Virus record (IMG/VR): IMGVR_UViG_2778261247_000002
Location: 1 to 5,544 of that record
DNA length: 5,544 bases
Reading direction: 5' to 3' (one strand)
From: a virus
Lineage: Duplodnaviria > Heunggongvirae > Uroviricota > Caudoviricetes
Part shown: piece by piece, positions 1 through 5,544 of the stretch
How positions within the stretch are numbered: the first letter of the stretch is position 1
Layout: every line of letters starts with the position of its first letter
Program-made: the position numbers and the translations under genes
The notes under the pieces: generated by a model
Told to the model about the DNA's origin: nothing
Database searches by the model: none
What the model saw: only the letters and a program-made list of their open reading frames with translations

Positions 1-284
1 AGGAGGCAACCAGCCGGATTGGCGTGGGGAATCTTTACCGGCTGATGCGCGGCTATGCCACCGGCGGTTATGTCGGTACACCGGGCAGCATGGCGGACAG
101 CCGGTCGCAGGCGTCCGGGAAGTTTGAGCAGAATAACCATGTGGTGATTAACAACGACGGCACGAACGGTCAGATAGGGCCACAGGCGCTGAAGGCGGTT
201 TATGACGTAGCCCGTAAGGCGGCAATGGATGTTGTGACCGGGCAGATGCGTGATGGTGGTCTGTTCTCCGGAGGTGGACGATGA
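1..284 (+). CDS. H: Tail tape-measure protein, C-terminal end (5'-partial; reading frame phase 3, stop TGA 282-284)
   Basis: The frame is open from the window edge with no upstream stop. The translation (GNLYRLMRGYATGGYVGTPGSMADSRSQASG...MRDGGLFSGGGR) matches the C-terminus of lambda gpH as I recall it. Its stop overlaps the start of M (ATGA), as in lambda. Confidence 0.9.
   Translation, partial: EATSRIGVGNLYRLMRGYATGGYVGTPGSMADSRSQASGKFEQNNHVVINNDGTNGQIGPQALKAVYDVARKAAMDVVTGQMRDGGLFSGGGR
270..274 (+). promoter_or_regulatory. Shine-Dalgarno (GGAGG) for M, 6-nt spacer to ATG 281
   Basis: GGAGG is read directly at 270-274, upstream of the ATG at 281. Confidence 0.6.
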
Positions 285-610
285 AAACCTTCCGCTGGAA
301 AGTGAAACCGGGTATGGATGTGGCTTCGACTCCTTCCGTCAGGGAGGTGCGCTTTGGTGATGGTTACTCCCAGCGCGCGCCTGCCGGGCTGAATGCCAAC
401 CTGAAAACGTACAGCGTGACGATTTCTGTCCCCCGTTGGGAGGCCACGGCGCTGGAATCGTTTCTGGCAGAGCACGGAGGCTGGAAAGCCTTTCTGTGGA
501 CGCCGCCTTATGACTGGCGGCAGATAAAGGTGACCTGCGCAAAATGGACGTCGCGGGTCAGTATGCTGCGTGTTGAGTTCAGCGCAGAGTTTAAACAGGT
601 GGTGAACTGA
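281..610 (+). CDS. M: Minor tail protein M (tail tip assembly), 109 aa
   Basis: ORF of 109 aa (MKTFRWKVKPGMDVASTPSVREVRFGDGYSQRAPAGLNANLKTY...) with the same length and sequence as lambda gpM as recalled. Start overlaps the H stop (ATGA) and is preceded by GGAGG. Confidence 0.95.
   Translation: MKTFRWKVKPGMDVASTPSVREVRFGDGYSQRAPAGLNANLKTYSVTISVPRWEATALESFLAEHGGWKAFLWTPPYDWRQIKVTCAKWTSRVSMLRVEFSAEFKQVVN
597..602 (+). promoter_or_regulatory. Shine-Dalgarno-like AGGTGG for L
   Basis: AGGTGG lies 7 nt upstream of the L ATG at 610. The M stop and L start overlap (TGATG), consistent with translational coupling. Confidence 0.5.
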
Positions 611-1308
611 TGCAGGATATCCGGCAGGAAACACTGAATGAATGCACCCGTGCGGAGCAGTCGGCCAGCGTGGTGCTCTGGGAAATCGATCTGACAGAGG
701 TCGGTGGTGAACGCTATTTTTTCTGTAATGAGCAGAACGAAAAAGGTGAGCCGGTCACTTGGCAGGGGCGGCAGTATCTGGCGTATCCCATTCAGGGGAG
801 TGGTTTTGAATTGAATGGCAAAGGCACCAGTACGCGCCCCACGCTGGCAGTCTCTAACCTGTACGGCATGGTCACCGGGATGGCGGAAGACCTGCAGAGT
901 CTGGTCGGCGGAACGGTGGTCAGGCGTAAGGTTTATGCCCGTTTTCTGGATGCGGTGAACTTCGTCAACGGAAACAGCGACGCCGATCCGGAGCAGGAGG
1001 TGATTAGCCGCTGGCGCATCGAGCAGTGCAGCGAATTGAGCGCGGTCAGTGCCTCCTTTGTACTGTCCACGCCGACTGAAACGGATGGTGCCGTTTTTCC
1101 GGGGCGCATCATGCTGGCTAATACCTGCACCTGGATCTATCGCGGTGATGAGTGCGGTTATAACGGTCCGGCGGTCGCGGATGAATATGACCAGCCGACG
1201 TCCGATATCACGAAGGATAAATGCAGCAAATGCCTGAGTGGCTGTAAGTTTCGCAATAATGTCGGCAACTTTGGCGGCTTCCTTTCCATTAACAAACTTT
1301 CGCAGTAA
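610..1308 (+). CDS. L: Tail tip assembly protein L, 232 aa, with C-terminal cysteine cluster
   Basis: ORF of 232 aa (MQDIRQETLNECTRAEQSASVVLWEIDLTEVGGERYFFCNEQNEKGEP...) matching lambda gpL in length and sequence as recalled. Conserved Cys codons sit at 1126, 1153, 1222, 1231 and 1243. Confidence 0.95.
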   Translation: MQDIRQETLNECTRAEQSASVVLWEIDLTEVGGERYFFCNEQNEKGEPVTWQGRQYLAYPIQGSGFELNGKGTSTRPTLAVSNLYGMVTGMAEDLQSLVGGTVVRRKVYARFLDAVNFVNGNSDADPEQEVISRWRIEQCSELSAVSASFVLSTPTETDGAVFPGRIMLANTCTWIYRGDECGYNGPAVADEYDQPTSDITKDKCSKCLSGCKFRNNVGNFGGFLSINKLSQ

Positions 1309-1313
1309 ATCCC

Positions 1314-2057
1314 ATGACAGAGACAGAATCAGCGATTCTGGCGCACGCCCGGCGATGTGCGCCAGCGGAGTCGTGCGGCTTCGTGGTGAGAACGCCGGAA
1401 GGGGAAAGATATTTTCCCTGCGTGAATATCTCCAGTGAGCCGGAGGAGTATTTCCGGATGTCGCCGGAGGACTGGCTGCAGGCAGAGATGCAGGGTGAGA
1501 TTGTGGCGCTGGTCCACAGCCATCCCGGTGGTCAGCCCTGGCTGAGTGAGGCGGACCGGCGGCTGCAGGTGCAGAGTGATTTGCCGTGGTGGCTGGTCTG
1601 CCGTGGGGAGATTCATAAATTCCGCTGTGTGCCGTATCTCACAGGGCGGCGCTTTGAGTACGGGGTGACGGACTGTTACACGCTGTTCCGGGACGCTTAC
1701 CATCTGGCGGGGATTGAGATGCCGGATTTTCATCGCGAGGATGACTGGTGGCGTCACGGTCAGAATCTCTATCTGGATAATATGGAGACAACGGGGCTGT
1801 ATCAGGTGCCGTTATCAGCGGCACAGCCCGGCGATGTGCTGCTGTGCTGTCTGGGTTCATCGGTGCCGAATCATGCCGCCATTTACTGTGGCGACAGTGA
1901 GCTGCTGCACCATATTCCTGAACAACTGAGCAAACGAGAGAGGTATACCGACAAATGGCAGCGACGCACACACTCCCTCTGGCGTCACCGGGCATGGCAC
2001 GCATCTGCCTTTACGGGGATTTGCAACGATTTGGCCGCCGCATCGACCTTCGTGTGA
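1314..2057 (+). CDS. K: Tail tip assembly protein K, 247 aa, two-domain (N-terminal JAMM/MPN-like, C-terminal NlpC/P60-like)
   Basis: ORF begins 6 nt after the L stop. HSH(x7)S(x2)D motif at 1515-1556 and a Cys/His/His set (DCYTLF Cys at 1674-1676, His at 1872-1874, HH at 1908-1913). Sequence matches lambda gpK as recalled. No strong SD upstream, so the start is probably coupled to L. Older lambda annotation starts at the internal Met equivalent to 1458 here. Confidence 0.88.
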   Translation: MTETESAILAHARRCAPAESCGFVVRTPEGERYFPCVNISSEPEEYFRMSPEDWLQAEMQGEIVALVHSHPGGQPWLSEADRRLQVQSDLPWWLVCRGEIHKFRCVPYLTGRRFEYGVTDCYTLFRDAYHLAGIEMPDFHREDDWWRHGQNLYLDNMETTGLYQVPLSAAQPGDVLLCCLGSSVPNHAAIYCGDSELLHHIPEQLSKRERYTDKWQRRTHSLWRHRAWHASAFTGICNDLAAASTFV

Positions 2058-2596
2058 AAACGGGTTCCGAAGCCATCCGGGCGCTGGCCACGCAGCTCCC
2101 TGCGTTTCGTCAGAAGCTGAGCGACGGCTGGTATCAGGTACGCATTGCCGGGCGTGATGCAGGCGAAAACGAATTATCTGCCCGTCTTAATGAGCCGCTG
2201 GCAAATGGTGCCGTGATCCACATAGTACCGCGTCTGGCGGGTGCCAAAAGTGGTGGTGTTTTTCAGGCAGTGCTGGGTGCGGCGCTGATTGCTACGGCGA
2301 TCTGGATGCCAGGAATCAGTATCGCTTTCAGTAACATTCTCTTTTCTATGGGGGCAGCTATGACGCTTGGTGGTGTCGCACAGATGCTGGCCCCTAAACC
2401 CAAAACTCCACGTACACAGACAACGGATAACGGCAAACAGAACACCTATTTCTCCTCACTGGATAACATGGTTGCCCAGGGCAATGTCCTGCCTGTTCTG
2501 TACGGTGAAATGCGCGTGGGGTCACGTGTGGCATCTCAGGAGATCAGCACGGCAGATGAAGGGGATGGTGGTCAGGTTGTGGTAATTGGGCGGTAA
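1955..2596 (+). CDS. I: Tail tip assembly protein I, 213 aa (ubiquitin-like N-terminus, hydrophobic central segment)
   Basis: ATG at 1955 lies inside the 3' end of K in a different frame (103-nt overlap, as in lambda). N-terminus (MAATHTLPLASPGMARICLYGDLQRFGRRIDLRVKTG) and C-terminus (KQNTYFSSLDNMVAQGNVLPVLYGEMRVGSRV.SQEISTADEGDGGQVVVIGR) match lambda gpI as recalled. The central Gly/Ala-rich segment is shorter and divergent. Confidence 0.9.
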   Translation: MAATHTLPLASPGMARICLYGDLQRFGRRIDLRVKTGSEAIRALATQLPAFRQKLSDGWYQVRIAGRDAGENELSARLNEPLANGAVIHIVPRLAGAKSGGVFQAVLGAALIATAIWMPGISIAFSNILFSMGAAMTLGGVAQMLAPKPKTPRTQTTDNGKQNTYFSSLDNMVAQGNVLPVLYGEMRVGSRVASQEISTADEGDGGQVVVIGR

Positions 2597-2601
2597 TATT
2601 A

Positions 2602-2630
2602 TTTACTCATGTTCTAACTGATTTAATATT
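2602..2630 (+). promoter_or_regulatory. Putative sigma70 promoter for the lipoprotein moron (-35 TTTACT 2602-2607, 17-bp spacer, -10 TAATAT 2625-2630)
   Basis: Hexamer matches of 4/6 and 4/6 with ideal 17-bp spacing, in an AT-rich stretch directly upstream of the lipoprotein ORF. An alternative -10, GATAAT, is at 2644-2649. Pattern match only. Confidence 0.3.
2603..2611. repeat. Left copy of 9-bp direct repeat (TTACTCATG) flanking the AT-rich insert
   Basis: TTACTCATG at 2603-2611 versus TAACTCATG at 3023-3031 (8 of 9 identical, core ACTCATG identical). The copies sit at the two compositional boundaries of the insert. Confidence 0.35.
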
Positions 2631-2668
2631 TATATCGAACACTGATAATTATTCTGTTGGTTAGCTAT

Positions 2669-3007
2669 ATGAACAAAACGATTTTATTCTGCACGATTAT
2701 TGCTTTAACAGGATGTAAATCTTTGGATTACGTAAAATCCGGGAAACCTGTAATGGAAGGTAATTCATTAAAAAATGTTGATGAATTGTCAGGCTGCATA
2801 TCCAGACAATGGGCTGGTAATGGAACACCTATAACATCCCTTCCTATTGAGAATGGGGTAAGCCTTTTAGTTCCACAGGCTATGGGTGGGTATGATGTTG
2901 TGCTTGATATCAAAAAAGCAGGAAATGGCAGTAGTTTTACTCTTTATGAACGCGTACCAGCACTAACGCCAAAAATTTTTGCTGATAGTGTTAATGCATG
3001 TAAATAA
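2669..3007 (+). CDS. Small secreted lipoprotein, 112 aa, unknown function (candidate moron / superinfection-exclusion protein)
   Basis: N-terminus MNKTILFCTIIALTG-C is a canonical lipoprotein signal peptide with lipobox LTGC; residues after the Cys are K and S, with no Asp at +2. Two further Cys in the mature part (SGCIS, NACK). The ORF track begins at an upstream TTG (2657), but the ATG at 2669 gives the canonical signal peptide. No strong SD, so the exact start is uncertain. Confidence 0.75.
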   Translation: MNKTILFCTIIALTGCKSLDYVKSGKPVMEGNSLKNVDELSGCISRQWAGNGTPITSLPIENGVSLLVPQAMGGYDVVLDIKKAGNGSSFTLYERVPALTPKIFADSVNACK

Positions 3008-3022
3008 TAGTTAATCCTGCCG

Positions 3023-3031
3023 TAACTCATG
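3023..3031. repeat. Right copy of 9-bp direct repeat (TAACTCATG) flanking the AT-rich insert
   Basis: See the left copy at 2603-2611. This copy sits exactly at the AT-rich to GC-rich transition, immediately before the hairpin. Confidence 0.35.
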
Positions 3032-3059
3032 AGCCGCCTTTTGGGCGGCTTTGTTGTTT
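3032..3059 (+). terminator. Rho-independent terminator-like hairpin (AGCCGCC / loop TTTTG / GGCGGCT) followed by TTGTTGTTT
   Basis: Perfect 7-bp GC-rich inverted repeat at 3032-3038 and 3044-3050 with a 5-nt loop and a T-rich tail at 3051-3059. It lies downstream of the lipoprotein stop and 14 nt upstream of the J start. Confidence 0.6.
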
Positions 3060-3061
3060 AT

Positions 3062-3065
3062 GGAG
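3062..3065 (+). promoter_or_regulatory. Shine-Dalgarno (GGAG) for J, 8-nt spacer to ATG 3074
   Basis: GGAG is read directly at 3062-3065, upstream of the ATG at 3074. Confidence 0.5.
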
Positions 3066-3070
3066 TGTGA

Positions 3071-5544
<2,474 letters not shown>

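Follow-up and report, generated by a model that had tools for sequence, protein, structure and literature searches.

The window, by which we mean the whole 5,544-nucleotide stretch analysed here (positions 1 to 5,544 of the IMG/VR record IMGVR_UViG_2778261247_000002), contains the distal tail-gene block of a lambda-like Escherichia coli prophage and is 100% identical to a prophage adjoining dusA in E. coli AR_0089. Relative to lambda, identity reaches 89% over positions 1-2592, which comprise the end of H together with M, L, K and I, and 94.7% over positions 3043-5539 in J. The tail assembly gene I (1955..2596, plus strand, 213 aa, stop codon TAA at 2594-2596) was delimited from the open reading frame list and the alignment with lambda and phage 434, and corresponds to a RefSeq 'tail assembly protein'. 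The 5' part of J, the tail tip or host-specificity gene (3075..5544, plus strand), starts with the ATG at 3075 and continues past the end of the window. Between these two genes lies a spacer of 478 nt; the same spacer is 60 nt long in lambda and 59-61 nt at other sites lacking the additional DNA, hereafter empty sites.

The additional DNA invites comparison with morons, defined as extra DNA of differing composition with its own promoter active in the repressed prophage and a downstream terminator (Hendrix/Juhala, summarised in PMC3594210). At this locus, extra DNA separates two genes that are normally adjacent, the 478 nt found here contrasting with 60-61 nt in lambda, in 434, in 130 IMG/VR sites and in sampled E. 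coli prophages. Its composition is unlike that of the surrounding genes, with a GC content of 0.35 over positions 2597-3031 against 0.56 in I and 0.56 in J, and the low-GC block is foreign to its flanks. It begins with an AT-rich non-coding region (2597..2668, plus strand, 24% GC), continues with a single small gene (2669..3007) and is followed by a terminator-like hairpin, GAGCCGCCTTTTGGGCGGCTT, with a T-rich tail (3031..3060, plus strand, stem-loop at 3031-3051). A terminator therefore does lie downstream of the gene, and it is the conserved backbone hairpin of the I-J junction, not one imported with the gene. A search of the plus strand for sigma-70 promoters returned no match at the 9/12 threshold of the tool; by eye, the 5' non-coding region offers TTTACT-17-AATATT and TTTAAT-16-GATAAT as candidates, both reaching only 8/12.

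The gene (2669..3007, plus strand) encodes a predicted lipoprotein of 112 aa with the lipobox LTGC, Lys at position +2 and invariant cysteines at positions 43 and 111. More specifically, its signal peptide MNKTILFCTIIALTG, followed by CKS, conforms to the lipobox L-x-G/A-C and carries a residue other than Asp at +2. Under the +2 rule, Lys at this position predicts sorting to the outer membrane, and the cargo lipoprotein is probably an outer-membrane protein. It matches phrog_914 over its full length (E 1e-32), and in the family alignment the motif GCKSLD is nearly invariant and both cysteines are conserved. The open reading frame is intact in 56 of 59 copies and segregates 11 synonymous and 6 non-synonymous changes, which indicates purifying selection. 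No match to the protein was obtained in Pfam or PADLOC, and NCBIfam gave no family match, VirB7 falling far below threshold (12.8 bits for a cut-off of 60). An AF2 model (pLDDT 83) was obtained, and structure searches with the protein recovered generic or uncharacterised matches only. Homology to a characterised exclusion protein such as Cor or Llp was thus not detected by Pfam, PADLOC, NCBIfam or structure; the likeness to Cor (phi80, N15, HK022) and Llp (T5) is that of small phage or prophage lipoproteins encoded beside tail or receptor-binding genes (PMC3594210 and general knowledge).

The moron archetype is HK97 gene 15 (Juhala et al. 2000; Cumby et al. 2012; PMC3594210, PMC3430355). Like morons of the HK97 type, the I-J block consists of extra DNA in the tail operon with a differing GC content and one small gene for an envelope protein, succeeded by a terminator. 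Unlike in these, no convincing promoter of its own was found for the block within the window, and its terminator is the backbone I-J hairpin. The proteins also differ, HK97 gp15 being an inner-membrane, YebO-like protein and the window protein an unrelated predicted lipoprotein.

We read about 138 empty I-J sites: those of lambda and 434, six in E. coli genomes and 130 in IMG/VR, the last group falling into 30 sequence variants. All of them have the form GTGATTGGYCGNTGA, TG(C/A)AAAAYRTTT(T/C)ATGTGAAAYCGCC, loop, and GGGCGGTTTT onward. Of the 5,426 complete E. coli genomes searched, about 4,300 gave a match to the I-J junction, and the insert together with both its flanks, I and J, was recovered from 334; at no less than 80% of its length, the insert alone is present in 333. 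A spread sample of 60 out of 4,326 records contained only two states of the junction, a spacer of 60-61 nt or one of 478 nt, and no other cargo. The approximately 349 copies of the insert, carried by 337 genomes, are all in the I-J context, and no phage-independent site was seen in the 5,426 genomes. The cargo family is present in about 6% of complete E. coli genomes, including EAEC 042, O104:H4 and APEC O1. The insert was not found in INPHARED phages, where the best-ranked lambda-type records match through their I and J flanks alone. All 58 IMG/VR loci have the same junctions, and the IMG/VR and E. coli copies are 95-100% identical to each other; on this evidence, the filled sites go back to a single event. 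A donor at high DNA identity was not found, the INPHARED search being empty and the E. coli copies all sharing the same context.

The hairpin preceding J informs on the direction of this event. It is annotated as a terminator in phage 434 and is present in all the empty sites read as well as in distant phages. The whole arrangement, in which the I stop codon and a spacer of 17-28 nt are followed by a GC-rich hairpin, a run of T residues and, ahead of J, ATGG, recurs even in Klebsiella and Kluyvera-type phages, where the tail proteins share only about 33% identity with those of lambda. Because spacer and hairpin are found in such very distant phages, the empty arrangement is ancestral and the hairpin is part of the backbone. 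The window accordingly holds an insertion relative to this ancestral arrangement, and lambda is not the product of a deletion; on its right side the insert ends at or before position 3031. The hairpin of the filled allele has itself diverged: a compensatory change replaces A-U by G-C at 3033/3049, the loop differs, and position 3055 is altered as well.

The insert is bordered by two copies of a short sequence, reported in the earlier note as a near-perfect 9-bp direct repeat at the compositional boundaries. Both parts of this description hold. The left copy, TTACTCATG (2603..2611, plus strand), begins 7 nt past the stop codon of I, and the right copy, TAACTCATG (3023..3031, plus strand), abuts the conserved GC-rich hairpin. 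They agree at 8 of 9 bases, including the exact 7-mer ACTCATG, are spaced by 420 nt from start to start, and mark the edges of the 35% GC block between the end of I (2596) and the start of J (3075). Each copy is the same in 58 of 58 IMG/VR copies of the locus, an extra T preceding the left one in 21 of the 58 alleles. The exact right junction, that is the right copy together with the hairpin, occurs in 337 E. coli genomes, every one of which is a filled site. Beyond the 9-mer, the two edges share nothing in register, with matches at 0 of 9 positions upstream and 3 of 9 downstream.

Whether this repeat exceeds chance depends on how much sequence is counted as edge. In mononucleotide shuffles of the edge zones, the chance of an 8/9 repeat is 0.005 for zones of 20 nt, 0.07 for 30 nt, 0.17 for 40 nt and 0.48 for 60 nt, the zone size being picked after the fact, and the repeat is only borderline relative to chance. 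We note that the tightest zones, with a P of 0.005, speak against dismissing microhomology outright. The same edges also contain a perfect inverted repeat of 10 nt (shuffle P of about 0.006), with a left arm TATTATTTAC (2597..2606, plus strand), interrupted by the extra T in 21 of 58 alleles, and a right arm GTAAATAATA (3000..3009, plus strand) that spans the final and stop codons of the lipoprotein gene. Since this inverted repeat is about as improbable as the 9-mer pair and no single mechanism produces both, caution is warranted in reading either of them.

Sequence differences around the insert extend farther than the repeat. Comparing the filled allele with 124 empty sites, we identified a block private to the filled allele from about 2584 to 3066, which is wider than the repeat. 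On the left, the private substitutions 2584 A, 2590 G, 2593 G and 2595 A fall within the last 13 nt of I, which reads GTA..GGG CGG TAA in the filled allele against GTG..GGT CGC TGA in empty sites, all changes being synonymous or from stop to stop. On the right, about seven private changes lie in 3032-3066, among them the compensatory change in the stem. Farther out, private positions are few, with two in the 200 nt upstream of 2570 and one in the 250 nt downstream of 3057. The filled allele is thus flanked by an I gene ending in GTAATTGGGCGGTAA and by the hairpin AGCCGCCTTTTGGGCGGCT / AGCCGCCTTTTGGGCGGCTTTGTTG. Neither the I end GGGCGGTAA nor the hairpin variant of the filled type was ever found without the insert; a scan for I ending in GGGCGGTAA and continuing into non-insert DNA returned 103 random matches, of which none is I-like. 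The ancestral empty site of the filled allele was likewise not found among the sequences searched.

The private block has the look of homologous but diverged backbone. Because it is wider than the repeat, it points to an insertion in an unsampled, diverged lambdoid ancestor and a subsequent homologous spread. Mosaics of this sort are documented to arise when diverged sequences undergo recombination of the Lambda Red type (PMC2327257). Furthermore, as private substitutions lie on both sides of the repeat, the filled allele does not descend directly from any of the sampled empty sites, and a test based on empty sites is not final.

Homologues of the lipoprotein gene are found at other tail junctions. 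Relatives with 50-63% identity, which are unannotated prophage genes, occupy the K-I junction of Klebsiella, Kluyvera and other prophages (L069-72, L075, L076, L208, L215, L216) and, in Enterobacter prophages, the junction of the chaperone gene T with the tape measure gene (L073, L209-214). A terminator succeeds the gene in each case. The homologues from Enterobacter are located exactly where HK97 carries gene 15 (PMC3594210). A distant homologue is gp19 of Klebsiella phage phiKO2, annotated as 'putative moron' at K-I (26% identity, pairwise E 9e-8). It resembles the window protein in length (111 versus 112 aa), in the position of its lipobox, and in being a tail-operon moron next to an annotated terminator; it differs in lying at K-I and not at I-J, and the relation is only distant. 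N15 and mEp237 provide the matching empty K-I sites, and comparison of phiKO2 with them reveals complex replacements at the junctions with no flanking repeat. A scan of genome contigs with the family alignment recovered only the Kluyvera locus and a spurious Nitrospira match. Terminal sequences are not shared between the junction contexts, which argues against a dedicated transposition machinery. On these comparisons, the lipoprotein gene appears as a typical moron that landed independently at three or more junctions.

The left edge of the insert has a possible counterpart in one of these relatives. The element ATTTACTCATGTTCTAACTGAT (2600..2622, plus strand), which contains the left 9-mer copy, matches ATTTACCTCATCTTTAACTGAT at 20 of 23 positions upstream of L075, the closest homologue (63% identical, K-I junction). 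The match has a shuffle P of about 0.001 across eight comparisons, while a MAFFT alignment placed the element in another register. At L075, ATTTACCTCATCTTTAACTGAT lies 13-34 nt upstream of the start codon and inside that moron, some 85 nt away from the stop codon of K; L207 has this element too. The left 9-mer copy is thus probably part of the cargo and not of the target, and the cargo probably extends leftward up to about 3 nt from the end of I, both points being no more than suggestive. For the right edge (3008-3031), no relative yielded a significant counterpart. The earlier note had also taken the repeat to define the cargo as about 420 bp: that size is right, and its limits are not set by the repeat, the left copy lying inside the element shared with L075.

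We hypothesize that the insert is a single-gene moron, that is about 415-435 bp of low-GC DNA placed between the I stop codon and the hairpin before J. Entry would have occurred on a single occasion, most likely by illegitimate recombination, which is the general assumption for morons, and into a lambdoid backbone that differed locally from every lambda-type phage sampled. Homologous recombination within I and J would then have carried the module from one E. coli lambdoid prophage to another and trimmed the donor flanks, leaving about 13 nt of them on the left side and about 35 nt on the right side. The lipoprotein gene would reuse the existing I-J hairpin as its terminator. We regard this course of events, an ordinary moron insertion in a diverged ancestor with later homologous spread, as fairly probable. 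The 9-mer pair would then be incidental at most, either a coincidence in AT-rich DNA or no more than a microhomology of 7 bp.

The principal alternative is the model of the earlier note, in which the ancestral spacer contained one T(T/A)ACTCATG and the cargo entered by microhomology, leaving one copy at each edge, for example through a single crossover of a circular fragment or through template switching with re-copying. The repeat does lie no more than 20 nt from both of the edges defined by homology, where its P is 0.005. Deleting one copy and the intervening DNA also restores a spacer of normal length, close to the 60 nt of lambda as the earlier note held, the remainder being 58 nt (478 - 420) and not 57. 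Comparison with lambda bears out an insert of about 420 bp over an empty spacer of 60-61 nt, but neither lambda nor 434 has ACTCATG. The earlier note expected empty sites to carry a single copy of this motif and considered that sites lacking it would mark the repeat as coincidental; ACTCATG is absent from all of the approximately 138 empty sites read, which by that note's own standard refutes the interpretation for each empty site that was available. A related sequence, TTTCATG, occurs at the equivalent place in about 10 of the 130 IMG/VR empty sites, so (T)CATG could be backbone.

Direct searches for the predicted single-copy junction point the same way as the empty sites. The exact junction has no occurrence in the 5,426 complete E. 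coli genomes, where only the right junctions of filled sites matched. Degenerate and gapped patterns, built on the private flanks or on CTCATG before the hairpin, gave none in IMG/VR and five matches in JGI metagenomes, all irrelevant. In addition, the 21-nt spacer of lambda and the other empty sites aligns with the edges of the insert no better than with the interior of the open reading frame. Against microhomology also count the rise of P to 0.07-0.17 with zones of 30-40 nt and the equally improbable inverted repeat at the same edges (P 0.006), which shows that edge coincidences happen here. We thus consider entry through microhomology-mediated illegitimate recombination possible and rather unlikely, the searches of empty sites and junctions giving it no support.

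One version of the microhomology model makes a further prediction. Under a single crossover of a circular or tandem intermediate, the donor is expected to be contiguous at CCTGCCGTAACTCATGTTCTAACTGAT, so that the right and left edges would adjoin each other in relatives. This circular permutation is unsupported, the right edge giving a P of 0.28. A broader proposal, in which a family of morons with a conserved 5' element hops between the I-J, K-I and T-tape-measure junctions of the tail operon, acts in receptor masking or superinfection exclusion, and left the ACTCATG pair through a Campbell-type single crossover of a circular intermediate at 7 bp of microhomology, is in our view improbable.

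A functional role for the two 9-mer copies, as a binding site for a protein or small RNA flanking the gene, would account for their invariance in 58 alleles and for the presence of the left copy within the element conserved at L075. However, the alleles are 97-100% identical overall, which makes the invariance uninformative; the right-edge sequence lacks a significant counterpart in relatives, and no such motif is common to the K-I or T-H versions. We judge this explanation very improbable.

The reverse course of events, with the filled state ancestral, the lambda-type spacers of 60 nt produced by deletion between the direct repeats and the hairpin left as a moron scar, is slightly less probable again. 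Deletions between short direct repeats are common in phage genomes (PMC5630979 and references therein), and a terminator-like hairpin inside a late operon resembles a moron remnant. Moreover, L216 and L076 share an identical 28-nt hairpin, which follows the lipoprotein gene in the former and occupies the I-J junction in the latter. Empty sites nevertheless do not retain the copy of ACTCATG that such a deletion would leave, and they are diverse (30 variants), whereas the filled allele forms one tight clade with 97-100% identity. Finally, the spacer with its hairpin exists in very distant relatives. Being a conserved I-J feature of distant phages, the hairpin of lambda was rejected as a moron scar.

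Target duplications of 9 bp are made by several IS families, and like IS elements and MITEs the insert has a short direct repeat, about 9 bp long, at each end. The earlier note also suggested a small target duplication; such a duplication, produced by a transposase that mobilises a small non-autonomous element, is effectively excluded even given the perfect 10-nt inverted repeat near the edges: the left arm (2597-2606) overlaps the left direct repeat from its outer side and the right arm (3000-3009) is set 13 nt inward of the right direct repeat, so that no terminal inverted repeats adjoin just inside the direct repeats; the repeat is imperfect; there is no transposase; the approximately 349 copies in 337 genomes are all at I-J, one site in 5,426 genomes in place of several unrelated ones; empty sites do not carry the single-copy sequence; and the homologues at other junctions have no common terminal sequences. 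Tai tail-assembly-interference systems were also considered and are not relevant here, being encoded upstream of the packaging genes (PMC11364771).

Returning to the moron insertion with homologous spread, the repeat itself adds little to its significance. The comparisons identify I-J as a new placement of a little-studied and already annotated kind of moron (phiKO2 gp19-like, phrog_914). Moron entry is usually put down to illegitimate recombination without evidence at the level of junctions, and proof of a microhomology footprint would add a modest but concrete observation on this step. A single crossover of a circular intermediate through 7 bp of microhomology would, if true, represent a concrete mechanism of moron acquisition. 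What the locus clearly shows is the second phase of moron spread, in which a single ancient insertion is moved by homologous recombination and its donor flanks are eroded to tens of bases. The lipoprotein would be expressed from the prophage and located in the outer membrane, and it may protect the host or the prophage, for example by receptor masking or superinfection exclusion. As a common and conserved family found repeatedly beside tail-tip genes, it is a reasonable candidate for tests of phage exclusion or envelope function.

At the insert edges, window positions 2597-2606 and 3000-3009 form a perfect inverted repeat of 10 nt (TATTATTTAC / GTAAATAATA), for which shuffling gave a chance probability of about 0.006. 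The left arm begins at the base directly 3' of the I stop codon, and the right arm spans the stop codons of the lipoprotein gene. With gaps allowed, the match extends to about 16/19, pairing TAAT-ATTATTTAC(TC)ATG with the reverse complement of GCATGTAAATAATAGTTA. An extra T disrupts the 10-nt repeat in 21 of the 58 IMG/VR alleles of the insert.

A direct repeat of 20 nt with 75% identity relates the end of I (2586-2605, TTGGGCGGTAATATTATTTA) to the I-J hairpin (3041-3060, TTGGGCGGCTTTGTTGTTTA). Synonymous substitutions private to the insert-bearing allele, in the last codons of I, generate the TTGGGCGG that this region has in common with the 3' arm of the hairpin; at I-J junctions lacking the insert, the same register matches at only 8/20 positions. 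Within the 5' untranslated region of the lipoprotein gene, a further motif recurs as AACTGAT (2616-2622) and ACACTGAT (2640-2646), each preceded by an ATTTA-type sequence, suggesting that about 23 nt have been partially duplicated in tandem. This duplication accounts for the different placement, by two alignment methods, of the element (2600-2622) shared with L075, the locus of the closest homologue.

The lambda I-J hairpin, AACCGCCTGCGGGCGGTTTT, closely resembles a 28-nt hairpin segment, AACCACCTGCGGGTGGTTTTTTTATGGG, that is identical in locus L216 (3350-3377) and the Kluyvera phage L076 (4003-4030) and also occurs in L077-79 and L205. In L216 this segment lies 3' of the lipoprotein gene and before I, but in the Kluyvera phage it occupies the I-J junction.

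Upstream of the insert, the N-terminal half of gene I (window 2101-2400) shares only 59-75% identity with lambda, compared with 90-98% in its flanks, and is a separate mosaic patch within I. In E. coli c1-17 (H44/H45) and 24AR0376 (H79), the 2300-3400 region matches as two pieces with about 780 bp of additional DNA between them, and the annotation beneath the match includes an IS1 transposase; in both genomes, the IS1 insertion lies in the moron or beside it. The phage AsXd-1 (H222, MH178096) is 95% identical to the flanks of the Enterobacter T-lipoprotein-tape-measure arrangement, with an insert-sized gap, a closeness that is unexpected for hosts so different, its recorded host being Aeromonas salmonicida.

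Cargo is also found at other tail junctions. Within positions 1511-4525 of L207, a Jejubacter-type prophage, the tail operon contains a multi-gene cargo island: an Xre-like ORF and an antirepressor-like ORF on the opposite strand precede the homologous lipoprotein gene (2971-3312), and another lipoprotein ORF (3406-3855), unrelated to it, separates that gene from gene I. At the K-I junction of phage mEp390 (L223, 594-1040) lies a different, non-homologous lipoprotein gene of 148 aa, for which a promoter is annotated. Lipoprotein morons seem to have landed repeatedly at the K-I junction.
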